Of a DNA stretch of 64,000 bases, positions 24,901 through 43,819 are shown one piece after another. The stretch spans positions 1 through 64,000 of the forward strand of contig JAUSGI010000008.1 of the NCBI GenBank assembly GCA_030649135.1, read 5' to 3'. The notes under the pieces are model-generated. The model had not been told where the DNA came from, ran no database searches, and saw only the letters and a program-made list of their open reading frames with translations. The stretch comes from a bacterium. Lineage in GTDB: Bacteria > Patescibacteriota > Minisyncoccia > Phycocordibacterales > Zambryskibacteraceae. The stretch's first letter is position 1. Every line of letters starts with the position of its first letter. The translations under genes and the position numbers were made by a program.

Positions 24901-24942
24901 ATCTATTCTCATGTTCTCAAGAACACCAGAATAAACTATTCT

Positions 24943-24961
24943 CCTATTCGCGCGAATTAGA
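24943..24961. repeat. palindromic motif CTATTCGCGCGAATTAGAC; near-copy at 31742-31760
   Basis: ATTCGCGCGAAT core palindrome; 17/19 match to the second copy at the boundary of another inserted cassette. Confidence 0.45.
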
Positions 24962-25022
24962 CTAACTTAGCTAAACATTAAGCTAATTTTGTGCTATAGT
25001 GCCAATTCCGTAATAATTTTAT

Positions 25023-30148: not shown

Positions 30149-30160
30149 CTCTTCAGTAAC

Positions 30161-31117
30161 ATGAAAAACATTCTCGTTACAGGCGGGGCCGGCTACATCG
30201 GCAGTGTCACGGTCAGAGGATTGCTTAATAGCGGGCACAAAGTGACTGTTCTGGACAATCTCTATAAGGGGAGGAGAGAACTGATAGATAAAAGGGCTGT
30301 TTTCCACAAACTGGATGTTATCAATTTGCCGGCTTTAGAGAGGTTTTCCAGAGGCAAGAAATTTGATGTGATTGTACATTTTGCCGCCTTGAAAGATGCC
30401 GGTGAATCTATGGTCAGGTCGGATTGGTATCAGGACAACATCACAGGGGTGATGAATCTCCTTAAAATTGCTCCGAAATTGAAGGTCAAGCAATTTGTCT
30501 TCTCCTCTTCAGCGGCTGTTTACGGTGAGCCGGGAACGAGGGTTATTGACGAAGACCATTCATGCCATCCTACCAACTTTTATGGCTATACCAAACTTGC
30601 GGGAGAGGAACTCTTGGAATGGGCAAGGAAACTAAAGGGAATAGAATATGTGGCGCTTAGATATTTTAATGTTGCAGGTGACGGGGGGCTCAATTATATA
30701 GACCCCAAGGCCCGAAATATCTTTAATGTTATTGGCGAGGTCCTGTGTGGCAGGAAAAAGGTGTTGGAAATATTCGGAGGTGACTATCATACTAAGGACG
30801 GGACGGGTATCCGAGACTACATTCATGTTACCGATTTGGCCAAGGCTCACGAAAAAGCTTTAAAGGTGAAAGGTTCCCATTTTATCAATCTTGGTAGTGA
30901 AAAGGGGTATTCGGTGCTGGAAATTGTCAAAGAATTTGAGAGAGTTTCCGGTGAAAAAGTGCCGTATAAGATAATCAAGAGACGGGCGGGAGATCCCGCC
31001 TCTCTAATTGCCACTTCCGCTAAGGCAAAGTCGATTCTCAAGTGGGTTCCTAAACTAGGGCTTAGAGAAATGGTTGAAAGTACCTGGCGGGCTTATAGAA
31101 AAACCAGCGAAGTGTAA
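30161..31117 (+). CDS. galE: UDP-glucose 4-epimerase (NAD-dependent epimerase)
   Basis: ILVTGGAGYIGS; YxxxK region. Confidence 0.85.
   Translation: MKNILVTGGAGYIGSVTVRGLLNSGHKVTVLDNLYKGRRELIDKRAVFHKLDVINLPALERFSRGKKFDVIVHFAALKDAGESMVRSDWYQDNITGVMNLLKIAPKLKVKQFVFSSSAAVYGEPGTRVIDEDHSCHPTNFYGYTKLAGEELLEWARKLKGIEYVALRYFNVAGDGGLNYIDPKARNIFNVIGEVLCGRKKVLEIFGGDYHTKDGTGIRDYIHVTDLAKAHEKALKVKGSHFINLGSEKGYSVLEIVKEFERVSGEKVPYKIIKRRAGDPASLIATSAKAKSILKWVPKLGLREMVESTWRAYRKTSEV
31029..31097 (+). repeat. direct repeat copy 1 (functional galE 3' end)
   Basis: 69 bp; 65/69 identical to 31763-31831. Confidence 0.8.
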
Positions 31118-31175
31118 TAATCACAATCTTCATACGGCTAGATTTAGTTGACAATACTGGTAGTATGAGTACTAT

Positions 31176-31406
31176 ATGAACCTCAAGCTAACCCGGCATT
31201 TCCAGGACATGATACAGCATCGGGGAATAGAGCTGGATGATGTCAAAAGGGCACTTAGCTCATCGGACGAAACAGTAGATGCCCATGATGGGGCTTTAAA
31301 GGTAACAAAACAAATTGGGGATAAAAAAATCGAGGTGATATACTGTAGGGAGACATTCAAAGATAGAAAAGACGAATACTTAATAATCACGGCATATTAT
31401 TTGTAA
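31176..31406 (+). CDS. DUF4258-like small protein (putative toxin-like component)
   Basis: 76 aa; promoter-like TTGACA at 31146. Confidence 0.5.
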   Translation: MNLKLTRHFQDMIQHRGIELDDVKRALSSSDETVDAHDGALKVTKQIGDKKIEVIYCRETFKDRKDEYLIITAYYL

Positions 31407-31409
31407 AAT

Positions 31410-31643
31410 ATGAAAATAGATTACGACAAAGTAGCAGATGCAATTTATTTCACTGTTAAAAGTGATAAAGTTGCTAAGTCTATAAAAGTAGACGACAGGC
31501 TTGTCGTCGACCTTTCCGCGTCGGGTGATATCGTCGGAATGGAACTATTAGATGCATCTTCAAAACAAGGGCAAGAACTTGAAAACAATATAAAGCAAGG
31601 AGTTCCCATAAATATTATCTCTGCCACACCGGTAACAGCTTAA
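31410..31643 (+). CDS. DUF2283-like small protein
   Basis: MKIDYDKVADAIYFTV (YDxxxDAxY motif); 77 aa. Confidence 0.55.
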   Translation: MKIDYDKVADAIYFTVKSDKVAKSIKVDDRLVVDLSASGDIVGMELLDASSKQGQELENNIKQGVPINIISATPVTA

Positions 31644-31646
31644 TCA

Positions 31647-31677
31647 CAGAAGCCCCGCAAGGGGGTCTTCTGTTTTG
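31647..31677 (+). terminator. rho-independent terminator
   Basis: CAGAAGCCCC-gcaa-GGGGGTCTTCTG then TTTTGGG. Confidence 0.6.
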
Positions 31678-31741
31678 GGCACACTATAAATAAAATAATG
31701 ACAACCCCCATGAAGACAATGCCCCCGTTCCCGTTATTCTA

Positions 31742-31760
31742 CCATTCGTGCGAATTAGCC
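31742..31760. repeat. palindromic motif CCATTCGTGCGAATTAGCC (copy 2)
   Basis: see 24943-24961; directly abuts the galE 3' duplicate. Confidence 0.45.
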
Positions 31761-31762
31761 AT

Positions 31763-31831
31763 AGTCGATTCTCAAGTGGGTTCCTAAACTAGGGCTTAAA
31801 GAAATGGTTGAGAGCACATGGCGGGCTTATA
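31763..31831 (+). repeat. direct repeat copy 2: displaced alternative galE 3' end (encodes ...SILKWVPKLGLKEMVESTWRAYKSVR*)
   Basis: 94% identical to 31029-31097, then diverges. Confidence 0.8.
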
Positions 31832-32052
31832 AATCGGTTAGATAAAGGACAATCTAAAGGACATTTAGACTTTCTAATGCAGAGGCCTTGGCTGGACGGA
31901 TTTTTCTTGCGTATTAGGAAAAAGTTATGCACAAGCTGTGAACAGGTTAATTAACATTGTCAACTTGACGGCCAGAAGGTGGGGTGTAGTGTTGCCGCAT
32001 ACTGTACTTGTCCTGTTAGCTTATATTACACAATAAAAAAAATTTAAAAAAA

Positions 32053-35000
32053 ATGACAAAACTCATGGGGGTAATTCTTAGCTTAGTGCTAATGGCCGGG
32101 TCGGTCCAAGCGGCCACCTTAGATGACATAGTATTTACAGAAATAATGGCGACTCCCAATGCTGTGGCTGATGCCGACGGCGAGTGGATTGAAGTTCAGA
32201 ACAATTCTTTAAGCCCAGTAGATATTGGAGGTTGGATATTAAACGATGGTTCAGATCACACTATTTCCGGACCTTATTCTATACCAGCGGGTGAGAAAGC
32301 GGTAATCTGTCGCGACAATGATTCCTCTGTAAATGGAGGAGTTAAATGCCATTATCAATCAGTTATGGTCCTAACTGACATTGGTAAAACTCTGCAACTT
32401 CTTGAGGGGGTGACCACTATAAACGAGGCTACATACGGAGACACTGCTGGAAATTCGGGAAAATCAGTTTATATTCCTAGTGGAAGTTTCGAGTCTGTTA
32501 GTCAATTTGGAAATGGCGATTATGGAACTCCGGCTGGGAATGGTGCATCAATTGGAACTCATTCCTACGCTTCGATTCAGATTGCAATTGATGCGGCAAT
32601 TTCCGGTAACACGATAGATGTTGGAGCGGGGACTTACGCGGAGAATGTTTCGCTTGACGGAAAGACAAATCTTACAATTCAAGGCGCTGGAGAGGCAACC
32701 ATTATTGAACCAGCAAGCGGAATTGGTTTTGCAATTAAAAATTCAAGCGGCATAACAATAAAGAATCTTAAAATACATACCACAGGAACCAATGCCCATG
32801 GTGTCTGGGTTGCGGGAACTCCGAATGGCGGAGCAACGGCGGTAACTGGTCTTACCGTACAAGATGACACCATAGTTGTTGACGGTTATTCCAGCGGCAT
32901 TTACGCCGAACAAGTTGATACAACACCTCATTCTGGCTGGCTAATAACAGGGAACACTATAACTGTAAATCCTGGCGCTGGTGTTACTGGTGATGGAATG
33001 GACTTGCACGATGTGTCGGGTTCGGAGGTAAGCTACAACACAATAATTCTGAATACTCCGACTGATAGCACAAATGTTCTCTGGACAAGCGAATTGTCAA
33101 ATCTTTCTAGTCTCATATTCTCCAATAACACCATCAGTGGCTCAAGCGGTAGTGAGATAGCAATCCTAACTGATTTTCTGGATGCTCTAGCAGATACATC
33201 AATTACCACCGTAACAGTAAGTGGAAACACGTTCAGTAATTGGGGTTCTAGGGCCCTAAGAGTCGGGACGGCTAACGGAACCGGAGCGGTGACGGAAATC
33301 GCAGTAAATTCAAACATATTCCAAATGGCCGCCGACACAACAGAAGTTATCGGCGGCACGGCTGCGTCAAGTGCGACTGGTAGCGGCAATATCTTCAATG
33401 TTAGTGGGACAGCAAAAATTCAAAAAGCGGTAGACGGGGCATTTTCTGGCGACACGATAAATGTCGCAGCGGGGACTTATGACGAACAGGTCGTAATAGA
33501 TGGAGAAGACCTGATATTACAAGGTGTTGGTGATACAACTATCATCCGACCATCTGCACCCGCAACGCTTACCCAGACTTATACCTTCCCAGCCGGAACT
33601 TTTTGGTCTGGCACAACTGCATCAAGTATTATCCTAGTGGAAAATGCCAGCGCTGTTACTATAAAAGATCTTAAAGTAGACGGTATTAATGTTACCAGTT
33701 TGCCCTTAACAGGTTCGCCTGACAGACTCGTCGGAGTTCTTTTGGGAGTATCTTCAGGTACCATTGATAATGCTACGGTCACTTCCATTAAAACAGCTGG
33801 CTATGCAAACCGTACATATGGCATTGAAGTAAGTGGCGCTGATAGTGGCACTTACAGCGTTGAAGTTAAAAGTTCTCATATAACAGACTGGGCTCGTAAT
33901 GGGATTGTTGCAGATGGAACTAATCTTACGGCCAACATCAATCACAACACGCTTGTAGGTCCTGGTACTATCTCTGGGCAGGTCGCTAACGGCATTCTTT
34001 TCATTGGTGGAGCTGCTGGTAACACTACAAGTAATACTATCAGCGGAATGCACTACAACGCAGATCCAGTATCTCGCAGTGCCGGTATCTTGATTTATGG
34101 CGCAACCACGGCCGGAATCTTGATAGACCAAAATGACATTTCCGATACGGATGATGGAATAAATTTGTCGGCCAGTTCTCATAACGCGACTGTCAGCAAC
34201 AACAATCTGCATAATAATCTAGAAGTAGGTATACAACTAGAAAACGGGACAGCAAACAACGCCATAACTGGGAACACAATTGTTAATAATACAATGGCTG
34301 GTATACGTTTTGGCGGTGCAGGTGATCCGGTTCCCGCGGAAGCGGATACTCCACCTGGGGCAGGTAATGTTGCTAATGATAAAAATACGATTACTGGTAA
34401 CGCGAACGGTATAGTAAATTACGATACGGGTCTTGGACAGATATTTGATGCCGCCAACAACTGGTGGGGCAACGTGAGCGGACCGTTCAACACTACAAGC
34501 AATCCTTTGGGAACCGGTGATTCTATTTCCGACAATGTAAACTTTGTTCCGTGGTATTCCACTAGCGGAATGACGACGCTTGTTTCCGCAAACATGATTG
34601 CTTACAATACCGCCTTGGATGCCGTTAGTCAGACGGACTACACGACTGCAAGCTGGTCTGCCTACCAAGCAATTGTGACTGCCAATACGAGGACCGACCA
34701 AAACACTCAAACTGAAGTTGATGACGCGACGGCCGCAATCACTACCGCGCAACTTGATCTGATTGCTATTGCCGACCTCACTGATTACAACACCGCTTTA
34801 GACGCAGTTGTTGAAAGCGATTATACGACCGAAAGCTGGGCAACGTATCAAGCTATTGTGGACGCCAATGTGGTAACCGACCAACATACCCAAGCTGAAG
34901 TTGATACAGCAATCGATAATATTACCATCGCGCAAGATGATTTAGTGGCAACACTGGACGTAGCAAAAACAACGGCACATGAAGCTCTTACAACTGCTCG

Positions 35001-35985
35001 CGCGTTATATACAGATACAAACTACACCGCTGAAAATCTAGTGGTCTTAAACGGATTCAAGTCGGATGGCGATATCGCGATTGACTCCGCTTCAGACTTA
35101 GCCGGAGTGTCCACAGCGCAGAACACAGCTACTGCTGGAATGGCCGGTGTGTTAAAAAATACACAAACAGCTCCTGACGATGACGGAAATGCGACAATGG
35201 ACTCTGACACAACGGAAGTGGTTATCACAGACCCGGATCAACCTGTTGACATTACAATTGAAAGTGGCACAGAAAATCCGACAATTGATGTTAGTGCATT
35301 TATTACCGATGGAATAGGAATATTGCCGGAGATTACAATCAATTCCGACGTAGCGGATGTTATAATTCCGGATAGTACGACAGTGACTGGCCCGACTGAT
35401 TGGGATGGGGTCATTAGCGTACCAACGGCTACCACTACTACTGGCACTGCCCCAGCTGGGTTTAGCGTTGGCGGTACTGTTATCTCGGTCGGTTCGTCTC
35501 AAGGAACATTAACCTTCAGTAATCCCGTTACGATATTACTTGCAGGTGTTACTGGAACAGTTGGCTACAAACCAGCTGGTTCAGATACTTGGCAGACGAT
35601 AACCAATGTTTGTGCCGACCCGTATGCAACTCCAGGCAACCCTCCAGCCGGTAGCGAATGCGCAATATCAAATGGTACTGATACTAAAATTGTCACCTTC
35701 CACTTCACGGAATTTGGAGAATTAGATTCTATTCCAGCTACGCCTATCCCTCCTCGTTCAAGCAGGGCAGGAGACTTTTCTCCGGCCGCGCGCAGAGCAA
35801 TCTTGGCAGCGACACCCAATGCATCAGCAGTATCGGTTGTAGGTCAAGTCCTTGGAGCCTTCACTGAAGATGAAAGACAGGCTCAAATTGTGTCCGTCCG
35901 CGGGCAACTTATAGAGAAGATAAATCAACTAATCGGTCTCTTGCGGGTGCAACTTGCAGCGGCCATAACAGCAGGCGATCAATAA
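32053..35985 (+). CDS. 1310-aa secreted surface protein: signal peptide, lamin-tail domain, long right-handed beta-helix (PbH1/NosD-like), three FIVAR-like repeats, C-terminal conserved module
   Basis: signal peptide; LTD VFTEI...GEWIEVQN...GGWILND; GAGTYAENV, NNWWGNVSGPFN; YTxxSWxxYQxxVxxANxxTDQxTQxEVD repeats. Confidence 0.85.
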   Translation: MTKLMGVILSLVLMAGSVQAATLDDIVFTEIMATPNAVADADGEWIEVQNNSLSPVDIGGWILNDGSDHTISGPYSIPAGEKAVICRDNDSSVNGGVKCHYQSVMVLTDIGKTLQLLEGVTTINEATYGDTAGNSGKSVYIPSGSFESVSQFGNGDYGTPAGNGASIGTHSYASIQIAIDAAISGNTIDVGAGTYAENVSLDGKTNLTIQGAGEATIIEPASGIGFAIKNSSGITIKNLKIHTTGTNAHGVWVAGTPNGGATAVTGLTVQDDTIVVDGYSSGIYAEQVDTTPHSGWLITGNTITVNPGAGVTGDGMDLHDVSGSEVSYNTIILNTPTDSTNVLWTSELSNLSSLIFSNNTISGSSGSEIAILTDFLDALADTSITTVTVSGNTFSNWGSRALRVGTANGTGAVTEIAVNSNIFQMAADTTEVIGGTAASSATGSGNIFNVSGTAKIQKAVDGAFSGDTINVAAGTYDEQVVIDGEDLILQGVGDTTIIRPSAPATLTQTYTFPAGTFWSGTTASSIILVENASAVTIKDLKVDGINVTSLPLTGSPDRLVGVLLGVSSGTIDNATVTSIKTAGYANRTYGIEVSGADSGTYSVEVKSSHITDWARNGIVADGTNLTANINHNTLVGPGTISGQVANGILFIGGAAGNTTSNTISGMHYNADPVSRSAGILIYGATTAGILIDQNDISDTDDGINLSASSHNATVSNNNLHNNLEVGIQLENGTANNAITGNTIVNNTMAGIRFGGAGDPVPAEADTPPGAGNVANDKNTITGNANGIVNYDTGLGQIFDAANNWWGNVSGPFNTTSNPLGTGDSISDNVNFVPWYSTSGMTTLVSANMIAYNTALDAVSQTDYTTASWSAYQAIVTANTRTDQNTQTEVDDATAAITTAQLDLIAIADLTDYNTALDAVVESDYTTESWATYQAIVDANVVTDQHTQAEVDTAIDNITIAQDDLVATLDVAKTTAHEALTTARALYTDTNYTAENLVVLNGFKSDGDIAIDSASDLAGVSTAQNTATAGMAGVLKNTQTAPDDDGNATMDSDTTEVVITDPDQPVDITIESGTENPTIDVSAFITDGIGILPEITINSDVADVIIPDSTTVTGPTDWDGVISVPTATTTTGTAPAGFSVGGTVISVGSSQGTLTFSNPVTILLAGVTGTVGYKPAGSDTWQTITNVCADPYATPGNPPAGSECAISNGTDTKIVTFHFTEFGELDSIPATPIPPRSSRAGDFSPAARRAILAATPNASAVSVVGQVLGAFTEDERQAQIVSVRGQLIEKINQLIGLLRVQLAAAITAGDQ

Positions 35986-35998
35986 CTCCCAAACGCTC

Positions 35999-36514
35999 CT
36001 ACGCGTGGTTGTATAACAGTTTAAGTTTCTCAAGCCCTCGGTGTGCTTGCACGGCCATAGCATTCTTTGATTGTCCGGTGATAAGAGCCATTTCTTTGAG
36101 TGACAGATTTTGCACGTACCGCATGCGTATCACTTTCTGGTATTTTGTCGGAAGATGTTGAATTAATAGGAGTGCCGCTTTCCCGTCTAGGGTGTTGAAA
36201 AGAAGTTCGGAATGTTCAACGCTCGGCTCGTAGCCTTTTTCAAGTAGGACATCAAGGGAAGTGGTTTTGTGCTTCCGATATTCATCAATGATAAGATTAT
36301 TGAGGACGTGGTAGAGAAAAGCTTTCATGACATCAATCTTCCCTCCTTTCACGAGGTAGGCCCATGTTTTCATGAAGGTGTCTTGTACTAAGTCTTCGCC
36401 CCTAGCATGGTCGTGTATCTTGAAAAAGGCATGTGCATTGAGTCCCTTTTCGTAGTCATTGTGTGCTAGGGTTAATACTGTCTGTTGGCGCACCTTCTGT
36501 TTGGGGGTCATCAT
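35999..36514 (-). CDS. ECF-type sigma-70 family sigma factor
   Basis: region 2 (DLVQDTFMKTW) and region 4 (LSLKEMALITGQSKNAMAVQAHRGLEKL). Confidence 0.8.
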   Translation of the reverse strand: MMTPKQKVRQQTVLTLAHNDYEKGLNAHAFFKIHDHARGEDLVQDTFMKTWAYLVKGGKIDVMKAFLYHVLNNLIIDEYRKHKTTSLDVLLEKGYEPSVEHSELLFNTLDGKAALLLIQHLPTKYQKVIRMRYVQNLSLKEMALITGQSKNAMAVQAHRGLEKLKLLYNHA

Positions 36515-36768
36515 ATATTAAGCATTAAGCCGAATCTCGGCGTGTCTTATTACAAAATTATTACAATCTGACTGCGACAAAGAGAGAAATAACCATATCT
36601 ATAGGCCTTAAATACCGTTAGGTCTGACCCTTTTTCTCTACACAGATATTACAGTAAGTATAACATACTTGGGATATCAGTGCGTTATGTAATAAATAGA
36701 GCTTTCTAGCGGCCTTATTGGTATAGAAACGACTTAATCCCACCGTTGACATTTCTGGATTAAATATC

Positions 36769-37152
36769 ATGCAAACACCCAAAACAATACTAATCATAGA
36801 AGATGAGAAAAGTCTTCGCGATGCCATCGTGGACATTCTACGTCTCAAAAACTTCTTGTCTCTTGAGGCAAAAAATGGTAGAGAGGGGGTGGAGCTCGCG
36901 CTCTCCAAACACCCTGACCTCATTTTGCTTGACCTTATTATGCCGGAGATGGACGGTATAATTGCGCTCAAAAATATTCGAGAAGATGCTTGGGGGAAAA
37001 AAGTTCCCATTATTATTCTAACGAATTTGAGTGCGACCAATGAACAGTTTGGGGATGATAAGGCGACGCTTAAGGCAACGCATTATTTAATTAAATCGGA
37101 TTGGAAGCTGCATGATATCGCAAAGAAGATCGAAGAAATATTGGAAACTTAA
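36769..37152 (+). CDS. stand-alone response-regulator receiver (CheY-like)
   Basis: ILIIEDEKSLRD...LILLDLIMPEMDG. Confidence 0.85.
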   Translation: MQTPKTILIIEDEKSLRDAIVDILRLKNFLSLEAKNGREGVELALSKHPDLILLDLIMPEMDGIIALKNIREDAWGKKVPIIILTNLSATNEQFGDDKATLKATHYLIKSDWKLHDIAKKIEEILET

Positions 37153-37160
37153 AATACTCC

Positions 37161-39182
37161 ATGAATAAAAAAACTATCATCTCTGCGTCCGATGATATAA
37201 TCCTAAATCTCAAAGTTTCGGCTAAGGAAAAAGAAATTGTCAGGCGCAAACTTGCTGTAACAGCAGAGAGGCTTGCTGCGACGGCAGTGAAACTTGCCAT
37301 AACAGCTAAGGAAAGAGAAAGTGTGAGGATTAAGCTAGCGGTGACTGCCGAAGAAAAGGAACATGTCAGGCTTAAGTTAGTGGTGACCGCAGAGAAGCTT
37401 GCTGTAATCGCAGAGAAGCTTGCTGTGACTGCCGAGGAAAAGGAAAGTGTCAGGCGCAAACTTGCCGTGACGGCAGCCAAACTTGCAGTAACGGCAGCTA
37501 AACTCTCCGCAACTACTGAGGAAAAAGAAAGTGTGAGACGCAAGAAGCTAGTCGCGACAGCAGCTAAGCTTGCTGTAACAGCAGAGAAGCTTGCTGCGAC
37601 CGCCAAAGAAAAGGAGAGTGTCAGGCGCAAACTTGCTGTGACCGCAGCCAAACTTGCTGTGACAGCAGAGAAGCTTGCCGCGACGGCCAAGGAAAAAGAA
37701 ATTGTTAGGCGTAAACTCGTCGTGACGGCAGAAAAGCTAGTCGTGACGGCAGCCAAACTCGCCGTGACAGCAGAGAAGCTTGCCGCGACGGCAGCCAAAC
37801 TCGCAGTAACTGCTAAGGAAAAAGAAATTGTTAGGCGTAAACTTGCAGCGACTGCTAAGGAAAAAGAAAGTGTCAGGCGCAAGCTGGTAGTGACTGCTAA
37901 GGAAAAAGAAAGTGTCAGGCGTAAGCTGGTGGTGACAGCCAAGGAAAAGGAGAGCGTCAGGCGTAAGCTGGTGGTGACAGCAGCTAAACTTGCTGTAACT
38001 GCAGCGAAACTCAAAAAGTCGTACGAAACACTCGAGAAGAAAGTGCTTGAACGAACCAAGAGTCTAGAAATGTCCAGAGCAAAGGAAGAGGCGGTTTTGC
38101 TCTCGATTGGTGACGGACTTCTTGTGACTAATGAAAAAGGAAATGTTATTATTATAAATAAGACAGCTGAAAAACTACTCGGTATTAAGAGTAAAGAAGC
38201 TATGGGAAAGGTCTTTTCCGAAGCCGTTCTTTTGGTAGATGAAAAAGGGGTGCCTATTCCGTCAGAGAAACATCCCGTAAGGATGGCTCTAGTAAGCGGC
38301 ATTACTACTGCCACTACTATTGTAGGTTCCACTTACTATAATGTGCGGAAAGATAAAACGAAATTTCCTGTGGCAATTATGGTCACGCCCGTTATTCTTG
38401 ACGGGAAGGTGATTGGAACAATTGAAGTTTTTCGAGATATTACCGCCGAGCGGGAAATTGATAAAGCCAAAACCGAATTTGTTTCCCTTGCTTCACACCA
38501 GCTCCGCACCCCGCTTTCTACGGTCAATTGGTACGCGGAAATGCTTCTGGCCGGAGATGTGGGGGAGTTGAATGAAAAACAAAAGAAATATTTAGATGAG
38601 GTATATCGCAGTAATCAGCGAATGGTTGAATTGGTAAACGCCCTTTTGGATGTCGCTTCTCTTGAAATTGGTACCTTTGTGGTTGAGCCGGAACCAACCG
38701 ATATAATCGAACTAGCGCAAAGTGTCATAGACGAACAAAAACCGCAGATTGAGGCCAAAAAAATAGTATTTTCTTTTTCATTCGGGAAAAATATTTCACT
38801 TATGCAGGCCGACCCCAAACTCCTGCGAATGATAGTGCAAAATATCTTGTCAAATGCGGTAAAATATACTCATGAAGGCGGGAAAATCGATATGTCGATT
38901 TCCTTAGCGGACAAAAATAATATTCTTCTGAAAGTCGATGATACGGGCTACGGCATACCCCAAAATCAGCAAGATAAAATATTTACCAAGCTGTTTCGGG
39001 CCGATAATGTCAGAGATAAAGACACGGACGGCACGGGCCTCGGGCTCTATATTGTAAAGTCAGTCGTTGAAAATTCTGGCGGGAAAATCTGGTTTAAGTC
39101 CGTGGGCGGGGAAGAAAATAAAGGCACCACCTTTTATGTATCGCTGCCTTTGGATGGGGCGAAAAAGCCGGCTAATATATAA
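37161..39182 (+). CDS. sensor histidine kinase: N-terminal repetitive coiled coil, PAS, HisKA, HATPase_c
   Basis: heptad KEKESVRRKLAVTAAKLAVTAEKLAAT repeats; PAS; H-box SLASHQLRTPL; HATPase N/G boxes. Confidence 0.85.
   Translation: MNKKTIISASDDIILNLKVSAKEKEIVRRKLAVTAERLAATAVKLAITAKERESVRIKLAVTAEEKEHVRLKLVVTAEKLAVIAEKLAVTAEEKESVRRKLAVTAAKLAVTAAKLSATTEEKESVRRKKLVATAAKLAVTAEKLAATAKEKESVRRKLAVTAAKLAVTAEKLAATAKEKEIVRRKLVVTAEKLVVTAAKLAVTAEKLAATAAKLAVTAKEKEIVRRKLAATAKEKESVRRKLVVTAKEKESVRRKLVVTAKEKESVRRKLVVTAAKLAVTAAKLKKSYETLEKKVLERTKSLEMSRAKEEAVLLSIGDGLLVTNEKGNVIIINKTAEKLLGIKSKEAMGKVFSEAVLLVDEKGVPIPSEKHPVRMALVSGITTATTIVGSTYYNVRKDKTKFPVAIMVTPVILDGKVIGTIEVFRDITAEREIDKAKTEFVSLASHQLRTPLSTVNWYAEMLLAGDVGELNEKQKKYLDEVYRSNQRMVELVNALLDVASLEIGTFVVEPEPTDIIELAQSVIDEQKPQIEAKKIVFSFSFGKNISLMQADPKLLRMIVQNILSNAVKYTHEGGKIDMSISLADKNNILLKVDDTGYGIPQNQQDKIFTKLFRADNVRDKDTDGTGLGLYIVKSVVENSGGKIWFKSVGGEENKGTTFYVSLPLDGAKKPANI
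37200..38010 (+). repeat. in-frame tandem repeats, 21-bp periodicity with 42- and 84-bp higher-order units
   Basis: e.g. three 42-bp units GCTAAGGAAAAAGAAAGTGTCAGGCGCAAGCTGGTAGTGACT at 37854-37979. Confidence 0.85.
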
Positions 39183-39190
39183 TTAATCAT

Positions 39191-39661
39191 ATGTCCAACA
39201 AATCTGTGAAAAAGCAAACCATTCTGGTAATAGAGGATGAGAAACCTCTGCTTGAGGCCATTAATGACAAACTTGAAAAAAGCGGTTTCGGTGTGATTGC
39301 GGCCCGTAGTGTGGAGCAAGCGTTCAACGCGAATATCGCGAAAAACGGCCTAGGTGTCATAAATGTTCGAAGCATCGAGCAAGCGCTTAATTATCTTGAA
39401 AGTTTGGAACGAGTAGACGCAATTTGGCTGGACCATCACCTTTTGGGCAAAGAAGATGGTCTTGATTTTGTAAAAAAATTTAAAGCAAATGGCGGGCGCT
39501 GGAGTAAAATTCCTGTCTTCGTAGTTTCGAATGCCGCCAGTCCCAAAACTGTCAAGTCTTATGTAGATTCCGGTGTGAGCAAGTACTATGTCAAATCCGA
39601 CCATCGACTCGATGAAATTATCAAAGACATTCAATCTTTTTTAGACCATTCGGCGAAATAA
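39191..39661 (+). CDS. stand-alone response-regulator receiver with an internal partial duplication
   Basis: ILVIEDEKPLLEAI...; duplicated ARSVEQAFN / VRSIEQALN segment. Confidence 0.75.
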   Translation: MSNKSVKKQTILVIEDEKPLLEAINDKLEKSGFGVIAARSVEQAFNANIAKNGLGVINVRSIEQALNYLESLERVDAIWLDHHLLGKEDGLDFVKKFKANGGRWSKIPVFVVSNAASPKTVKSYVDSGVSKYYVKSDHRLDEIIKDIQSFLDHSAK

Positions 39662-39763
39662 ACCGGTTGTAATATTTCCGTCTCTGGAACGGCATTTATG
39701 GCAAGGGTAGGTAGTAAACTCAACTATTCGCTCAAGTCATTAATTAAATAACTAGTAAAACAT

Positions 39764-41692
39764 ATGGAAAAATCTAATAAGGGTTCAATTATACTAACCG
39801 TGCTGACCGTCTCCCTTGTAATCGGTTTTCTGGGGTCAATGGTCGCGTATGCATTCGTAAGTCCAGCGACAGTCAATCTTGGAACAGCGGCTGATTTTGC
39901 GATTCTCTCGAAAGCGGGAATCACTAACGTTCCCACCTCTGTCATTACTGGGAATATCGGAACAAGTTTAGATGAAGCCAGTACTGATACTGCTTTCGCA
40001 GGTATCACGTGTGGCCAAGTGACGGGGTCAATATACTCGTTCAACTCGACAGGTCCTCTCCCTTGTGTGTTAGCTGACTCTGTATTGGCTACAACTGTAG
40101 TAAGTACGGCCGTAGGCGATATGGAAACTGCAATAACCGATGCCAACAGCCGAACACCTGATGATATCGACCTTGCATTCAATGCGGGCGTAGGATGTGC
40201 TCTTGGCACTTGTGACCTCGCGGGGCTTACTCTCGCTCCCGGCGTCTATACATTCACAGCTCCTGGCAATGTCATCATCACAAACGATGTTACCCTCTCG
40301 GGTAGCCCAAGTGATATTTGGATATTCATCATCCCGGGGACTCTTGATATCAGCTCTGCCAAGAAGGTTCTTCTAACCGGCGGCGCAGTATCTGACAATG
40401 TCTTCTGGTCAGTTGCTGGCGCGACTCAACTTCAAACATCTTCTACGTTCGAGGGAAATATCCTTGAAGCAGGAACGCCTCTTGCGATGCTCTCCGGTGC
40501 TACACTACACGGAAGAGCACTGTCGAAATTCGCAGTTACGCTCGATGCCAATACCGTTACGACTCCTTCCGCCACACCACCTCCGACAACCGGTCCGGTT
40601 TTCGTGGAAGAGGGGGTTGCGAACGGTACTCTTGATTTAGGAGAACTATTCTTCAACACCGTTCAATCAGCAATCGATGACGCAGGTACTCTTTCCGGCG
40701 ACACCATTCACGTTACCGCAGGAACTTACAACGAAAGTATCGTAGTTAACAAATCATTAACGCTCAATTCCGTGGGAGCAGTCATAAACGGCTCGGCGGG
40801 ACAAAATGGTGTTTCTATCGGGGCAAGTGATGTTACGGTTAACGGCTTCGAAGTTACTTCTAGCGGTCTTAGTGGAGTCTACGGTATCGCTGAAACAACG
40901 CCTGTCAGTAACACAGTTATTACCCACAACGTCGTTCACGGCTTTCCCGCATTGGGTATTGCGTTGGCGGCTGGTTCTGTCAATGCAGAAGTTACAACTA
41001 ACGAAGTCTACGATGTGTACGGAGGCATCTATCTTTCTACCGGCGCAATCGGTGCACTTGTAGACGGTAACGATGTTCACGACTTAGTAAGCGGTGCTGG
41101 TCCTGACCAGGGAGCCGCGGTCGCGTTTGAAGGAAACAACACAGATGTTTCGGTAACCAACAACACTCTCACAAATAACGCTTTCGGTCTCTATGTGTGG
41201 TCTGCGTTCGGTTCTGACTTTACCGGCACTGTAGTTGAGCATAACAAATTTGTAGGCAACACAGACGGTGTGGAAAATACCAATACTGGTATTATCAACG
41301 CTTCTCCGAACTGGTGGGGAGCTGTCACAGGTCCGACTCATGCCACCAACCCTAGCGGTCTAGGCGATGCGGTGAGCGACAATGTTACTTTTGACCCATG
41401 GTATGTGGACGAGGCTATGACCACGCTGTCAAATGCCCCGGCTCCAGCTCCCGCTCCAGCACCAGAACCAGAACCAGAATCAAGGGGTTCAAGGTCCGGT
41501 GACTCACGAAGAGTTTCTGCTCAAACTGCCAATGTAGTGGTGGGCGAAATCCTCGGCATCTTTACCGAAGCTGAAAGACTGGCACAGATTGCGACTGTTA
41601 AGGTTCAACTGTCCTCTCTTATCCGCCAACTGATCGGTTTATTACAGGCCCAATTGATTACGGCGCTTCAGACAGAGATTCGGAACTATTAA
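39764..41692 (+). CDS. 642-aa surface protein: DUF3494 (ice-binding-like) N-domain, Thr/Pro linker, PbH1 beta-helix, C-terminal conserved module
   Basis: LGTAADFAILSKAGITNVPTSVITGNIG; GTYNESIV, SPNWWGAVTGP; C-term GIFTEAERLAQI...QLIGLL. Confidence 0.8.
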   Translation: MEKSNKGSIILTVLTVSLVIGFLGSMVAYAFVSPATVNLGTAADFAILSKAGITNVPTSVITGNIGTSLDEASTDTAFAGITCGQVTGSIYSFNSTGPLPCVLADSVLATTVVSTAVGDMETAITDANSRTPDDIDLAFNAGVGCALGTCDLAGLTLAPGVYTFTAPGNVIITNDVTLSGSPSDIWIFIIPGTLDISSAKKVLLTGGAVSDNVFWSVAGATQLQTSSTFEGNILEAGTPLAMLSGATLHGRALSKFAVTLDANTVTTPSATPPPTTGPVFVEEGVANGTLDLGELFFNTVQSAIDDAGTLSGDTIHVTAGTYNESIVVNKSLTLNSVGAVINGSAGQNGVSIGASDVTVNGFEVTSSGLSGVYGIAETTPVSNTVITHNVVHGFPALGIALAAGSVNAEVTTNEVYDVYGGIYLSTGAIGALVDGNDVHDLVSGAGPDQGAAVAFEGNNTDVSVTNNTLTNNAFGLYVWSAFGSDFTGTVVEHNKFVGNTDGVENTNTGIINASPNWWGAVTGPTHATNPSGLGDAVSDNVTFDPWYVDEAMTTLSNAPAPAPAPAPEPEPESRGSRSGDSRRVSAQTANVVVGEILGIFTEAERLAQIATVKVQLSSLIRQLIGLLQAQLITALQTEIRNY

Positions 41693-41723
41693 CACCGATA
41701 CTCTCACTCTGGACTGATTAAAA

Positions 41724-41759
41724 GAACCACCCCGGCATCACGCCGGGGCGGTTCTTTAT
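41724..41759 (+). terminator. rho-independent terminator
   Basis: GAACCACCCCGGC-atca-CGCCGGGGCGGTTC then TTTAT. Confidence 0.65.
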
Positions 41760-41783
41760 CCTCACTAAATAAGGTAAAATGAC

Positions 41784-42716
41784 ATGATGCGCCGAAAACT
41801 AAAGAATACCTTTATACCGCATCGCGGTAATCACCACCACCCCCATATACTGCGGCATAAGTCTCTCTCTGCCGTCTTGACTGTCGTAGTGCTCCTCGAG
41901 TTTACGATGCTTCTAAGTCCATTCGTGTGGCCGCGTCTTGGTATAGAGCTTGCGACGGTATTGCCCTCTGTGGTTACCCTTCTTACCAATAATGCCCGCG
42001 CGGAGGGCCACATCGCGAATGTAAAAGTGAACGATATTTTGACTCTCGCCGCGCAGGCCAAAGCCGATGACATGGCCTCCAAGGGATATTTTTCCCATAT
42101 AGGTCCAGATGGTACCAAACCGTGGTACTGGTTTAAGCAGGCAGGGTATCAGTATCAGTATGCCGGTGAAAATTTGGCGGTGAACTTCGCTAATTCGGAG
42201 GGGGTAGTAAAGGCTTGGCAGAATTCTCCCATGCATAATCTTAATCTTCTTGGCCCGCGCTATACCGAGACCGGAGTAGGTATTGCCACCGGTATGTACA
42301 AGGGTAGAGAGGCTGTGTTTGTGGTGCAGTTTCTCGCTTCATCACAGAAGACAGAGGCGGGTGTAGTAAATGCTACCTCCACCTTGCCTAAAGTATCTGG
42401 TATTCCCAGCCCTCTGAATATGGTGAATCCATTGGTGCTCGGCGTATCCACGGAGGATACCGGCAACCAATCCATATGGTTGCGCATTATCTCATCGCCA
42501 CGAACCTATGGCACGTATGCACTTTTCGTACTCACCTTCCTGTTCTTACTGGTACTTCTTACCGGTTGGGGCAGGCATCGTCCTAGGGCGTTAGTGTATG
42601 GAGTAATGATGGTGGGGCTACTGGCTGGAGTAATATTTATGAACAAGTATCTGACATTTCCGCAACCGGAACTCTCGGAAGATACTCAGAATGGGGCATC
42701 ATTTAACTCGCGGTAA
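41784..42716 (+). CDS. CAP/SCP/PR-1-like extracellular domain protein with TM segments
   Basis: GYFSHIGPDG...GENLAVNF...AWQNSPMH...TETGVGIA. Confidence 0.7.
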   Translation: MMRRKLKNTFIPHRGNHHHPHILRHKSLSAVLTVVVLLEFTMLLSPFVWPRLGIELATVLPSVVTLLTNNARAEGHIANVKVNDILTLAAQAKADDMASKGYFSHIGPDGTKPWYWFKQAGYQYQYAGENLAVNFANSEGVVKAWQNSPMHNLNLLGPRYTETGVGIATGMYKGREAVFVVQFLASSQKTEAGVVNATSTLPKVSGIPSPLNMVNPLVLGVSTEDTGNQSIWLRIISSPRTYGTYALFVLTFLFLLVLLTGWGRHRPRALVYGVMMVGLLAGVIFMNKYLTFPQPELSEDTQNGASFNSR

Positions 42717-42718
42717 TT

Positions 42719-43819
42719 ATGGCAAGCGGCAGGAAAGTGGATAAACAGTTTTTGCTCATCTCCGTCGTTTTGATAGTGGTCGGTTTTTTTATCTTCAGCT
42801 CGGCCTCCCTTGCTCTACTGGCCAAAGAAAGTTCGAATTATTCAAGCGTAGCTTTCTCTCAAACGGTTTTCGGGCTTTTTCTCGGTACGGTGGCCATGAT
42901 AGTGGTCTCGCGTTTGGACTCTAAAAACTGGAAGAAAATGGCTTTCTGGCTTTTATTGGGCGCTATCATTCTCAATGTTTTGGTATTGGTGCCGGGGATC
43001 GGGTTCGAGCACGCCGGCGCCAGGCGTTGGATTATACTCGGTGGTATTTCTTTCCAGACATCAGAAATATTAAAATTGGCTTTCATTATCTACTTCGCGG
43101 CCTGGGCCGCCGGAGTCAAGGAGAAGATGAAAACTTTTGCCTGGGGTTTCTTGCCCCTCCTCGTTCTTTTTGCCGTCTCGGCCATTCTGCTCTTGAAACA
43201 GCCGGATACCGATAATCTTATTCTGATTATCTTCGCGGGCATGGCTATGTTTATCGCCGCGGGAGGGAAGTGGCGATACGTTTTTATGATTATACTGGCC
43301 GGCGTGGTGGGGCTTACCCTTCTGGCTTTTATGCGGCCGTACGTGATGCAGCGCATTACCACTTTCTTTGACCCGCAGACGGATGCCCAAGGTGCCAGCT
43401 ACCAAGTCCAGCAGTCTCTCATTGCTGTCGGTTCCGGTGGCCTTTTCGGTCGCGGATTCGGTCAAAGTGTTCAGAAATTCACCTATCTTCCCGAGCCGGT
43501 CGGGGACTCGGTTTTTGCCGTGGCGGCCGAGGAGTTCGGTTTCGTGGGTTCCGTTTTCTTGTTGTTAATCTTTGTCCTTTTCGCTACCAGAGGCCTCAAG
43601 ATTGCATCCGGGACGACAAGCGTCTTTGCTAGACTCACGGTGGTTGGAATTGTTATAATGATTGTCTCCCAAGCATTCGTCAATATCGGCGCCATGCTCG
43701 GAGTGATTCCACTCTCCGGTATTACTTTGCCTTTTGTTAGCCATGGGGGCACCTCCCTTTTTGTCACTCTTGTGGAAGTGGGTATCGTGCTCTCTATCTC
43801 TAGAACTCGAGGGTCTTAA
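42719..43819 (+). CDS. ftsW: SEDS-family peptidoglycan glycosyltransferase FtsW/RodA
   Basis: 10-TM SEDS pattern; QPDTDNL, conserved C-terminal block. Confidence 0.85.
   Translation: MASGRKVDKQFLLISVVLIVVGFFIFSSASLALLAKESSNYSSVAFSQTVFGLFLGTVAMIVVSRLDSKNWKKMAFWLLLGAIILNVLVLVPGIGFEHAGARRWIILGGISFQTSEILKLAFIIYFAAWAAGVKEKMKTFAWGFLPLLVLFAVSAILLLKQPDTDNLILIIFAGMAMFIAAGGKWRYVFMIILAGVVGLTLLAFMRPYVMQRITTFFDPQTDAQGASYQVQQSLIAVGSGGLFGRGFGQSVQKFTYLPEPVGDSVFAVAAEEFGFVGSVFLLLIFVLFATRGLKIASGTTSVFARLTVVGIVIMIVSQAFVNIGAMLGVIPLSGITLPFVSHGGTSLFVTLVEVGIVLSISRTRGS

Follow-up and report, generated by a model that had tools for sequence, protein, structure and literature searches.

DalA, a CAP-like lipoprotein of Rhodobacter, binds peptidoglycan and is associated with the divisome (PMC10470522). 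In the window analysed here, a stretch of 64,000 nucleotides from a contig of an uncultured Zambryskibacteraceae (CPR) bacterium, a membrane CAP/YkwD-like protein with a hydrophobic helix at the N-terminus and two more at the C-terminus is encoded immediately ahead of ftsW, its stop codon lying 2 nt before the ftsW start (41784..42716; Pfam PF00188, 59.9 bits; genes and signals are on the forward strand unless noted). Its likeness to the described proteins is distant: the DalA model matches the CAP domain weakly, at 47.8 bits and far under its cut-off, and the YkwD model falls likewise far under its own. MraY (29102..30148; best model TIGR00445, 154.5 bits, under the cut-off of 192) and FtsW (42719..43819; TIGR02614, 346.7 bits against a cut-off of 337.5) border the region of interest. 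They are normally neighbours in this lineage, as had been expected: among 68 related Paceibacteria loci encoding MraY and then FtsW on one strand, taken from MAGs and metagenome contigs that vary in quality, the gap is at most 150 bp in 40, 150-1000 bp in 15 and more than 1 kb in 13, the widest being 9,056 bp. The window's separation of 12,570 bp (a 12.6-kb slot at 30149-42718) is thus exceptional among related loci. The borders themselves are conserved: MraY orthologues are 55-95% identical across 80 loci, a D-Ala-D-Ala carboxypeptidase gene (Peptidase_S11; 28154..29098; PF00768, 120.6 bits) precedes MraY in nearly all relatives, and MurG (43830..44975; best model TIGR01133, 227.5 bits, under its cut-off) follows FtsW in all of them. 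The window's local cell-wall cluster is a reduced set, Dac-MraY-FtsW-MurG-GltX-M23, in which none of murD (an anticipated member), ftsI and ftsZ is found.

An earlier note on this DNA had described a single accessory block with its own regulation, inserted between galE and ftsW. Pfam and NCBIfam searches confirmed all the genes it named in place, FIVAR being no more than a sub-threshold resemblance; the intervening DNA does appear accessory and rich in surface proteins within a core cell-wall operon, and relatives lack the window's gene order, which argues against a conserved core. The idea of one inserted block did not survive comparison. Of the 20 relatives closest by MraY (identity of 70% or more), 15 have an occupied slot, and what it contains differs among them: a DUF2914 protein, Redoxin plus DoxX, or a tail protein plus CAP. 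L001 and L083 (MraY 89% and 87% identical) have a slot without cargo, L084 (87%) carries DUF5674-hyp-HicB-GT2-large ORF, and the closest relative, L081 (95%), carries DUF5674-hyp-GalE-HTH-hyp-1612-aa S8/Ig protein-CAP-NYN. We read 30149-42718 as a replacement-type flexible genomic island, a recombination hot spot between highly conserved cell-wall genes at which Zambryskibacteria take up, lose and exchange surface-protein genes, and give this reading a probability of about 0.72. Comparison shows a mosaic assembled in several separable events rather than one insertion of foreign DNA, and relatives carry other cargo at the same spot; the direction of these events is assigned by parsimony from a few genomes.

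The first layer of this mosaic is a backbone shared with L081, comprising galE, a tail-bearing surface protein, CAP and ftsW. GalE (UDP-glucose 4-epimerase; 30161..31117; TIGR01179, 318.8 bits against a cut-off of 262) is 87% identical in amino acid sequence to its counterpart in the slot of L081 and L082, no other locus having galE there, and the CAP protein is 81% identical in L081. Both genes occupy the same positions there, so that galE does not mark the border, nor CAP a part, of an insert, as had been proposed; each appears to be an older resident of the slot, outside the novelty.

In a second layer, a self-contained cassette of about 0.5 kb (31113-31644) would have been added downstream of galE. 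It encodes a DUF4258 protein, the putative toxin (31176..31406; PF14076, 25.4 bits against a cut-off of 25), and a DUF2283 protein, the putative antitoxin (31410..31643; PF10049, 47.4 bits). The same cassette recurs in L176 downstream of a different tail-family gene, at 84% nucleotide identity, the two proteins being 79% and 95% identical, respectively. Direct repeats of 75 nt flank it: copy 1, towards the 3' end of galE as it now stands (31023..31097), is 92% identical to copy 2 (31757-31831), which lies within what probably remains of the 3' end of the ancestral galE (31757..31865). It is copy 2, not copy 1, that runs on into L081-like sequence found downstream of galE in that relative. With the arrival of the cassette, galE would have acquired a different 3' end, its former one persisting as the direct repeat; neither the repeat nor the altered end points to a particular mechanism.

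The third layer concerns a 1310-aa secreted protein (32053..35985; Pfam LTD and Beta_helix) composed of a signal peptide, an LTD domain, two beta-helix blocks, repeats with a sub-threshold resemblance to FIVAR (17.6 bits against a cut-off of 29.2), a stalk and a C-terminal tail. We found no orthologue of it, the next-best match being 42% identical. Its residues 1041-1240 are nonetheless 67-70% identical to the 1612-aa protein of L081, with unrelated heads: the segment 32006..35168, delimited by blastn breakpoints and the L081 gene table, has no counterpart in L081, where an S8 peptidase/Ig-like/HYR head stands instead. The 1310-aa protein is thus a head-swapped allele of the L081 protein, the resident's head having probably been replaced and its stalk retained.

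The fourth layer would be the placement of a module-bearing segment of 5.7 kb in the tail-coding region, around a conserved junction encoding GQVLGAFT. As judged from blastn coordinates, protein alignment and tail DNA identities, this 5.67-kb segment (35899..41568) falls inside the single tail-coding region of L081 and contains a divergent tail helix, a sigma factor gene, a REC-HK-REC operon and the body of a DUF3494/beta-helix protein. The two giants are collinear as far as 'SRAGDF'; beyond this point the terminal helix of the L081 giant is that of the window's DUF3494 protein (37/39 aa, and 85% nucleotide identity over the last 123 nt), whereas the window giant's own tail coding sequence is 53% identical to that of L081 over its last 123 nt. 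Placement of the segment would explain why the window now encodes two tail-bearing secreted proteins. Their tail coding sequences are just 55% identical in nucleotides, so no recent recombination footprint is left, and the junction would be explained equally well had the lineage of L081 lost the DNA between two tails; it is only the single tail gene before CAP in L002, L011 and L091 that favours insertion in the window.

This ambiguity bears on a broader alternative, that the arrangement is ancestral to the Zambryskibacteria subclade and that relatives with shorter slots have shed genes, for instance through a deletion joining the two direct tail repeats. Recombination between the tails would give exactly the L081 gene, with the stalk of one protein and the helix of the other, gene loss is common in reduced CPR genomes, and most of the closest relatives have kept some cargo. 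We nevertheless consider such an ancestry unlikely: MraY and FtsW are directly adjacent in deep-branching relatives (Nomurabacteria and Yonathbacteria-like loci) as well as in the close relatives L001 and L083, the three single-tail loci carry one tail gene before CAP, and the sigma module lies elsewhere in five further distinct loci. Under the preferred reading of a replacement island, exchange would have proceeded by homologous recombination anchored in conserved sequence, namely the tail junction and the 3' end of galE, without an integrase.

The sigma module consists of an ECF-type sigma factor (35999..36514, reverse strand; Sigma70_r2 and r4_2; TIGR02937, 54.8 bits against a cut-off of 42.9), whose gene is monocistronic with no anti-sigma gene adjoining; two single-domain response regulators, REC1 (36769..37152; PF00072) and REC2 (39191..39661; PF00072 and cREC_REC); a histidine kinase lacking a membrane segment (37161..39182); and a 642-aa secreted DUF3494 (Ice_binding-like) and beta-helix protein with the C-terminal tail (39764..41692; PF11999, 161 bits; Beta_helix). 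About 290 N-terminal residues of the kinase form 7/14-residue repeats (DNA 37206-37981), followed by PAS, HisKA and HATPase_c domains, and related kinases 60-77% identical to it occur widely in Paceibacterota. Sigma, REC1, kinase and REC2 together are 66-81% identical to the set in L088-L090 (sigma 66-74%, REC1 71-81%, REC2 79-81%). The five loci with the module elsewhere are L088, L089, L090, L171 and L174; gene order is the same in L171 and L174, and the flanks differ among loci, except that L088 and L090 have common neighbours. The set is a conserved Paceibacteria lineage module, apparently relocated to the slot in the window.

The tail shared by the two secreted proteins is rare: in a set of 1.84 billion proteins, no more than 52 representative clusters carry it, nearly always at the extreme C-terminus and behind adhesin-type heads. 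Its AlphaFold model is poor (mean pLDDT 47), the terminal helix excepted. In homologues of the giant's head, the same GQVLGA junction is followed by a terminal PG_binding_1, and the DUF3494 proteins of the module at other loci finish in PEVLGA...(F/L)PNAG, a membrane helix and basic residues, with a sortase gene adjoining. Judged by its position alone, the tail would serve as an envelope anchor: both beta-helix proteins may be exported and tethered to the envelope through their C-terminal helix, in place of the PG_binding_1 domain or sortase signal of their homologues.

Selection might instead have placed these genes in the operon as an integrated division-site surface system of tail proteins, CAP and FtsW-MurG, displaying, for example, septal or polar adhesins. 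A tail gene does stand upstream of CAP in the window, L002, L011, L081 and L091 (directly, or within about 0.7 kb in L091), CAP-ftsW linkage extends to at least nine loci with the tight spacing noted above, and the divisome link of DalA lends the idea some appeal, weak though the model match is. We regard it as doubtful, given that in L015, L023, L033 and L038 CAP precedes ftsW with no tail gene, that about 79 of 80 metagenome CAP relatives do not adjoin ftsW, that many relatives, close ones included, have neither gene, and that tail-family genes also occur away from the slot (L176). According to the replacement-island reading, the ancestral mraY-ftsW transcription unit would have been split, so that ftsW-murG may now be read with CAP.

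Import of one 11.6-kb foreign island by site-specific integration between galE and ftsW could account for the absence of the block from all 80 related genome loci, and some segments of the giant are 50-67% identical to proteins from Woesearchaeota and other Patescibacteria. Already contradicted for the whole block, this explanation is in our view very improbable. No tRNA was found in the window, no integrase or transposase domain in the scanned ORFs (every block ORF and some 30 larger flank ORFs), and no match in the viral contigs searched. GC content matches the flanks and GC3 lies within their range; a shift in tetranucleotide usage was seen, the correlation with the window's other DNA falling to 0.63-0.67 over 30-37.5 kb, but the giant gene alone deviates, which its biased amino-acid content can explain, the sigma-to-CAP part standing at 0.84 within a background range of 0.77-0.93. 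Composition that is not foreign suggests shuffling within the lineage rather than import from outside. The conservation of CAP in L081, the identity of the regulators to lineage orthologues, at the same level as core genes, and internal breakpoints indicating at least three separate events likewise oppose a single insertion. Least probable of all is an assembly or binning chimera of populations joined at repeats, conceivable for a MAG with repeats at 31023/31757 and in the tails, and the more so as the independent Logan contig L175 (SRR13727527) stops exactly at repeat copy 2, but opposed by the 100% identity of L175 to 31769-43702, including the giant-sigma, DUF3494-CAP and CAP-ftsW junctions, by homology of 31769-32005 to L081 sequence downstream of galE, which ties the giant to that neighbourhood, and by the same nearest relative for the genes of both flanks. 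The gene order is no assembly artefact over 31769-43702, the span covered by L175; the left junction (galE-TA-remnant) lies outside that coverage.

Regulation specific to the block, as the earlier note envisaged, is contradicted on two counts: the regulators belong to the module found elsewhere in the lineage, and the predicted promoter motif precedes module genes and the toxin-antitoxin cassette only. The motif, TGTAAT-N16-CG(G/T)C, is matched exactly at four places in the window, where 0.24 would be expected, and 0/100 shuffles reach four; all four are intergenic and correctly oriented, and the signal arises from the 16-nt spacer only. Module loci hold 36 matches in 164 kb, against 10 in 2.15 Mb elsewhere. 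In the window the exact matches, each with CGGC, lie upstream of the toxin gene (31113..31138), sigma (36529..36554, reverse strand), REC1 (36688..36713) and the DUF3494 gene (39668..39693); the window scan found none upstream of the 1310-aa gene, CAP or ftsW. The site ahead of sigma, predicted to mediate autoregulation, is kept in 6/6 module loci, the DUF3494 genes of L088, L090, L171 and L121 have the same motif upstream, and the L176 cassette has TGTAAT-N16-CGTT at the corresponding place. Promoter function, sigma regulon and signalling route are predictions from these conserved motifs, by which sigma would transcribe its own gene, REC-HK-REC, the DUF3494 gene and, probably, the cassette, and the soluble PAS kinase would signal by way of the two single-domain receivers rather than an anti-sigma factor. 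No known mechanism would let single-domain receivers control an ECF sigma. The toxin gene has, in addition, a sigma-70-like promoter, TTGACA-16-TACTAT (31148..31175; the best of the scan, 10/12 positions), which abuts its start codon and is kept in L176, and a GC-rich hairpin with seven G-C pairs (41730..41748) lies between the DUF3494 gene and CAP.

The separation of mraY (29102-30148) from ftsW (42719-43819), to which the earlier note had drawn attention, is indeed unusual: the intervening DNA, here termed the slot, measures 12,570 bp in the window, versus 150 bp or less in 40 of 68 relatives. These relatives derive from a scan with an MraY alignment, taking one genome per species, that retrieved 80 loci; the 68 in which MraY is followed by FtsW on one strand were used for gap statistics. 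Besides the 40 with gaps of up to 150 bp, 15 have gaps of 150-1000 bp and 13 exceed 1 kb, the largest being 9,056 bp. Among the 20 relatives closest by MraY identity (70% or more), 15 have an occupied slot, versus 13 of 48 more distant ones. MraY homologues place the window in Candidatus Zambryskibacteria (Paceibacterota, CPR), one match, on a MAG contig, being 100% identical. Comparison of the relatives showed that they do not share the gene order of the window and that cargo differs even between close relatives. The nearest, L081 (MraY 95%), carries DUF5674, a hypothetical gene, GalE, HTH_5, a second hypothetical gene, a 1612-aa S8/Ig/HYR protein, CAP and NYN; L084 (87%) carries DUF5674, a hypothetical gene, HicB, GT2 and a large ORF; and in L001 (89%) and L083 (87%) the slot is without cargo. 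Elsewhere the cargo scanned comprises a DUF2914 protein of about 360 aa (L009, L011, L012, L015), Redoxin with DoxX (L004, L010), and a surface protein with CAP (L002, L011); six further loci have ORFs comparable in size to the DUF2914 gene in its position. The proposal that a single surface-protein and signalling block of about 11.6 kb (31120-42716) had been inserted into the cell-wall locus is contradicted by this pattern, the site being a hypervariable slot with differing cargo. The same locus holds alternative cargo, ranging from none to the set found in the window, between conserved flanks, and it is best described as a replacement-type flexible island at the mraY|ftsW junction of Zambryskibacteria. 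In this genome the island now holds a giant protein gene with a swapped head, a small predicted toxin-antitoxin (TA) cassette, and a relocated module of an ECF sigma factor, a two-component system and a DUF3494 protein. An independently assembled Logan contig (L175; SRR13727527; 11,934 bp) reproduces window 31769-43702 with 100% identity and thus covers the giant gene through ftsW, so the gene order is not an artefact; its end falls at the second copy of a repeat derived from galE, as a de Bruijn assembler would give. A metagenome scan with the CAP protein did not enlarge the slot sample: apart from L091, the single truly orthologous locus, it retrieved about 79 paralogues of CAP whose surroundings are unrelated. 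Literature searches on DUF3494 with sortase, on Zambryskibacteria and on the Patescibacteria dcw cluster found no prior description.

Domain scans confirmed every gene that had been named in the region. Upstream of the slot lie Dac (S11; 28154-29098) and MraY, whose best equivalog model scores 154.5 bits, below the cut-off of 192. Within the slot, GalE (30161-31117) is followed by DUF4258 (31176-31406; PF14076, 25.4 bits vs 25) and DUF2283 (31410-31643; PF10049, 47.4 bits vs 23), the giant protein of 1310 aa with a signal peptide, LTD and beta-helix domains (32053-35985), the ECF sigma factor on the minus strand (35999-36514), a 127-aa receiver, REC1 (36769-37152), a PAS histidine kinase (37161-39182), a 156-aa receiver, REC2 (39191-39661), a 642-aa protein combining DUF3494 and a beta-helix (39764-41692), and a membrane CAP protein (41784-42716). 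FtsW scores above the TIGR02614 cut-off, while the best equivalog model of MurG (43830-44975) reaches 227.5 bits, below 250. The giant protein contains a 61-aa internal repeat; the FIVAR domain previously attributed to it is sub-threshold (PF07554, 17.6 bits vs a gathering score of 29.2). The roughly 30 larger ORFs scanned elsewhere in the window are housekeeping genes.

As in the canonical dcw cluster, mraY, ftsW and murG occur in that relative order, which is kept in 68 loci, and mapping by tblastn revealed an order strongly conserved across the class: TrpS-AspS-ScpA-ScpB-Dac-(AsnB)-MraY-FtsW-MurG-GltX-M23. This cluster differs from the canonical one in being reduced, lacking murD between mraY and ftsW (absent from this site across the whole lineage) as well as ftsI, murE, murF, ftsQ, ftsA and ftsZ; in being extended by scpAB, the D,D-carboxypeptidase, gltX and the M23 peptidase; and in having the contiguity of mraY(-murD)-ftsW-murG broken, by 12.6 kb in this genome. 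The order ftsW-murG-gltX-M23 is kept across the class, and GltX of the window (44959-46161) is short, at 400 aa, its gene overlapping murG and the M23 peptidase gene at their ends. Dac and MraY abut in the window (29098/29102), as they do in L002, L010, L028, L081, L083 and L084; in most relatives they are about 1.8 kb apart, and the one such gap scanned (L003, 5380-7215) encodes a 611-aa AsnB-type asparagine synthase (glutamine amidotransferase). Upstream of TrpS, NUDIX and HTH_5 genes present in L081, L083 and L084 are missing from the window (21273-21289), where a HATPase ORF ends 15 nt before TrpS. Farther upstream, a 422-aa ORF with an alanyl-tRNA synthetase catalytic domain (4562-5830) is directly followed by a 440-aa ORF with no Pfam match at 1e-4 (5846-7168), and the two may represent a split or frameshifted alaS. 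A carbamoyltransferase gene (17455-19248, minus strand) occupies a low-GC stretch (0.40) amid housekeeping genes.

Three genes are common to the window and L081 at the same positions, namely GalE (87% aa), CAP (81%) and FtsW (93%), and the differences between the two loci locate the breakpoints, which fall in the galE 3' end and in a tail-coding junction. At the first of these, the TA cassette is flanked by 75-nt direct repeats (31023-31097 and 31757-31831) that are 92% identical. Copy 2 continues into the sequence found 3' of galE in L081 and is therefore the original end of galE; copy 1 terminates in 20 novel nucleotides, which supply GalE with a new C-terminus. The cassette proper (31113-31644) recurs in L176 at 84% nucleotide identity, behind a different surface-protein gene, and bears promoter-like and hairpin (terminator-like) elements of its own. 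Scans of the window for generic sigma-70 promoters (29 sites vs 25.5 in shuffled sequence) and terminators (24 vs 17.1) showed no enrichment, and only individual sites by the TA cassette and the CAP gene are used here. Two-gene DUF4258/DUF2283 cassettes are predicted type II toxin-antitoxin systems. The window pair resembles these in consisting of neighbouring small genes, separated by 4 nt, whose products of about 76 aa each match the expected Pfam domain; it differs in having the putative toxin gene first, in bearing the promoter motif of the sigma module, and in adjoining surface-protein genes twice (window and L176). PADLOC identified no defence system in the window, returning only generic REC and HATPase domain matches. 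Just left of the galE remnant lies a 30-32-nt element (31731-31764), of which an inverted near-copy occurs in L081 between the HATPase and NUDIX genes (4630-4661; 96.9% over 32 nt, with an exact 22-nt core); neither the rest of the window nor 176 other loci contain a further copy.

The second breakpoint involves a C-terminal tail shared by the giant and DUF3494 proteins, consisting of the sequence SRxGD...GQVLGAFT and a helix. The head of the giant gene (32006-35168) has no counterpart in L081; identity to the L081 giant is 67-70% across residues 1041-1240. The two giants are collinear as far as 'SRAGDF', beyond which the terminal helix of the L081 protein matches that of the window DUF3494 protein (37 of 39 aa; 85% of the last 123 nt). 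The last 123 nt of the window giant's own tail-coding sequence are, by comparison, 53% identical to those of L081 and 55% to those of the DUF3494 gene. Since the L081 helix matches that of the DUF3494 protein and not that of the giant, the 5.67 kb from 35899 to 41568 lie inside what is one tail-coding region in L081. This arrangement could reflect insertion in the window lineage or deletion in that of L081; a single tail gene precedes CAP in L002, L011 and L091 as well, and this comparison of loci favours insertion. A recent integration of Campbell type, by recombination through tail homology, was downgraded on finding that the two tails share only 55% nucleotide identity.

A profile built from the two window tails, searched against 1.84 billion proteins, retrieved only 52 representative clusters, with the tail located nearly always at the extreme C-terminus of proteins spanning 54-5191 aa. 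Their heads are of adhesin type, with Bact_surface_Ig-like domains in 17 of 48 and Beta_helix in 11 of 48, others bearing Ice_binding, MBG_2, YDG or S8 domains. The giant itself has no orthologue; its best match is 42% identical and other matches cover only 20-33% of its length. Homologues of its head end in PG_binding_1 after the same G(Q/E/K)VLGA junction. DUF3494 proteins encoded with sister copies of the sigma module have two types of end, either PEVLGA...(F/L)PNAG followed by a hydrophobic helix and basic residues, with an adjoining sortase gene, or a PG-binding-like domain. By position, then, the tail would appear to stand in for known envelope-retention modules, an analogy drawn from where these domains occur. 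Neither tail protein of the window has a sortase-type signal and no sortase domain occurs in the window ORFs scanned; both beta-helix proteins would be exported, through predicted AXA-type signal peptides, and retained by the tail. Its position, matching that of PG-binding domains and sortase signals, suggests that this rare module provides a third route of envelope retention in CPR bacteria. An AlphaFold2 model of the C-terminal 178 aa of the giant, from an alignment of five sequences, has a mean pLDDT of 47, and only the terminal helix (about 38 residues) is confident. Ends of (F/L)PNAG with hydrophobic helix and basic residues occur at L088:13976-15826, L090:13837-15744 and L171:8176-11385, in DUF3494/SpaA-like proteins beside a sortase gene, and suggest a non-canonical sortase motif in these Paceibacteria.

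The signalling genes had been viewed as the block's own regulation. Inspection of other loci does not bear this out: the same order, with a sigma gene divergent from REC-HK-REC, occurs at five other distinct loci, and in L088, L090 and L171 it is followed by DUF3494 genes and sortase (L172 and L173 are further contigs of the L171 sequence and are not counted separately). Flanking genes are unrelated between loci, being Band_7 and T4SS pilins in L089, Transgly_assoc and prfA-ftsEX in L171 and a methyltransferase in L174, except that L088 and L090 share the neighbours rpsB-tsf and pheS. Sigma, REC1, the kinase and REC2 are 66-81% identical (aa) to their sister-module counterparts, versus about 40% for the DUF3494 domain. 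Given this shared order and identity, the module is a conserved unit of the lineage that has come to lie in the slot, not one devised for the island; Paceibacterota commonly encode homologues of the kinase, with 60-77% identity.

Autoregulated ECF sigma factors characteristically recognize bipartite promoters, with a generic GGAAC-N16-17-CGT architecture, and SigE-CseABC exemplifies an ECF sigma factor linked to a two-component system. The window protein conforms in having only sigma2 and sigma4 domains (Sigma70_r2, r4_2; TIGR02937, 54.8 bits vs 42.9), in adjoining a histidine kinase, and in that its own gene and those next to it are preceded by a bipartite motif whose spacer is fixed at 16 nt and whose -10 element contains CG; none of the models for specific ECF subgroups reaches its cut-off. 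It departs from the known pattern in several respects. The -35 element is TGTAAT. No anti-sigma gene was found, the sigma gene being monocistronic in the window, L088-L090, L171 and L174. Neither receiver has the DNA-binding output domain of a classical two-component system. The kinase, which has HisKA and HATPase domains, lacks a membrane segment and has a long, coiled-coil-like N-terminus of about 290 residues made up of degenerate 7/14-residue repeats. Finally, the predicted conserved target is a DUF3494 surface protein. The kinase repeats (37206-37981) follow the pattern KLAVTAE / KLAVTAKEKESVRR, with a DNA period of 42 nt, and homologues vary from 404 to 711 aa mostly through this repeat region. 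We propose that the soluble PAS kinase would feed two single-domain receivers that act on the sigma factor by protein contact, and the whole may constitute an anti-sigma-free form of ECF control.

The motif, TGTAAT-N16-CG(G/T)C, was found by aligning intergenic regions of module loci. The window contains four exact matches, versus 0.24 expected, a number reached in none of 100 shuffles, and only the 16-nt spacer gives a signal. They lie ahead of the toxin gene (31113-31138, plus strand), sigma (36529-36554, minus), REC1 (36688-36713, plus) and the DUF3494 gene (39668-39693, plus). In six loci TGTAAT-N16-CG(G/T/A)C precedes the sigma gene, and over all fetched DNA there are 36 motif matches in 164 kb of module loci versus 10 in 2.15 Mb elsewhere. 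One of those ten, TGTAAT-N16-CGGC at L121:6713-6738, is directly ahead of another DUF3494 gene; L121 was fetched for its CAP gene, and the only other window protein matched there was the DUF3494 protein. Allowing one mismatch adds a single site, inside dnaB, which leaves the giant gene, CAP and ftsW outside the set of predicted targets. With its fixed spacer and CG-containing downstream element the motif fits the architecture of ECF promoters, and it is here a predicted promoter. Direct repeats of TGTAAT might alternatively mark a site bound by a response regulator, a reading set aside since no regulator that binds DNA is encoded and the fixed N16-CG(G/T)C partner is more in keeping with a promoter. 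Acting at the predicted promoter, sigma would transcribe its own gene, the kinase operon and the DUF3494 gene, perhaps the TA cassette too, and across module loci the regulon may comprise DUF3494 or sortase-anchored surface proteins expressed from TGTAAT-N16-CGGC. This provides a predicted promoter and regulon for an ECF sigma factor of an uncultured lineage, of which full-text literature searches found no prior description.

The product of the DUF3494 gene has, like other ice-binding-like proteins, a full-length N-terminal Ice_binding domain after a signal sequence (PF11999, 161.1 bits vs 28.7; profile positions 1-208 of 208), and differs from them in its fusion to a right-handed beta-helix and a lineage-specific tail. 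The sortase-type or PG-binding ends and sortase gene of sister loci are missing in the window, and nothing points to ice binding for this protein. The CAP domain is likewise well supported (PF00188, 59.9 bits vs 21.1). DalA is a divisome-associated lipoprotein of Rhodobacterales; the Rhodobacter protein binds peptidoglycan and associates with the divisome (PMC10470522). Both the YkwD and DalA family models match the window CAP domain, whose gene adjoins ftsW, with scores far below their cut-offs (92.5 vs 171 and 47.8 vs 200 bits), so that membership is not reached. The window protein also differs in being anchored by membrane helices rather than a lipobox, its N-terminus being a membrane helix that lacks one, and in its host, a monoderm-type CPR bacterium. 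The recurrent place of CAP before ftsW and its weak match to the DalA model would suggest a part in wall or division biology, as a lead and not as family membership. A GC-rich hairpin precedes the CAP gene, whose stop codon lies 2 nt from the ftsW start; this spacing would place CAP at the head of an ftsW-murG-gltX-M23 unit, with which it would now be transcribed.

The GC content (0.42-0.50) and GC3 of the block fall within the range of the flanks. Tetranucleotide correlation with the remaining window drops to 0.63-0.67 at 30-37.5 kb alone, where the T/S/G/A/N-rich giant gene lies; at 35-42.5 kb it reaches 0.84, and the background range is 0.77-0.93. No tRNA was found in the window, and neither the ORFs of the block nor the roughly 30 larger flank ORFs scanned encode an integrase or transposase domain. 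A phage origin was dropped, since neither the antitoxin nor the DUF3494 protein had a relevant match in scans of viral contigs. This composition together with homologues internal to the lineage argues for shuffling within the lineage, probably through recombination anchored where sequence is conserved, in the flanks, at the end of galE and at the tail junction.

Replacement flexible islands are loci at which genes for surface structures are exchanged between conserved flanks, such as the O-antigen locus between galF and gnd and the pneumococcal cps locus between dexB and aliA. The Zambryskibacteria locus resembles them in its constant position and differing cargo, in its highly conserved core flanks, in the lack of an integrase and in a largely native composition; its cargo also consists of surface components, with signal peptides and LTD, Beta_helix, Ice_binding and CAP domains. 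It differs in that both flanks belong to a single operon of cell-wall and division genes (mraY|ftsW), that the cargo comprises giant modular proteins, not glycan-synthesis genes, that one recombination anchor seems to fall within coding sequence, at the conserved junction of the C-terminal tail, and that the host has a reduced CPR genome. The locus is a hot spot within an operon that ranks among the most conserved of the lineage, and giant adhesin-like proteins would be exchanged there domain by domain. CPR bacteria (Patescibacteria) are thought to live attached to hosts, with tiny, streamlined genomes. The slot may serve as a dedicated expression site for exchangeable proteins of the surface or of host attachment; the tail, with its amphipathic helix of about 38 residues, may together with CAP form an undescribed, division-tied means of envelope retention; and the tail-coding junction may double as the site at which heads are swapped. 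That all of this forms a linked pair, the slot an expression site with its tail/CAP retention system and the module a novel form of ECF control, we regard as unlikely. These observations do not overturn current views, offering a clear, well-delimited example rather than a surprise; the slot could serve population metagenomics as a strain-level marker of surface variation, and the pairing of tail and CAP and an ECF sigma factor apparently controlled without an anti-sigma are leads to test.

A second variable slot occurs between AspS and ScpA (23486-26804), which are adjacent in L081. In the window it holds a 211-aa ORF with no Pfam match, an ORF weakly resembling TraB/PrgY, and an ABC exporter; GC content reaches its minimum for the window here (0.37-0.38, at 23-26 kb). 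The ABC gene of L083 is 93% identical to that of the window, exceeding the identity of its MraY (87%), a difference in sequence that hints at mosaic ancestry.
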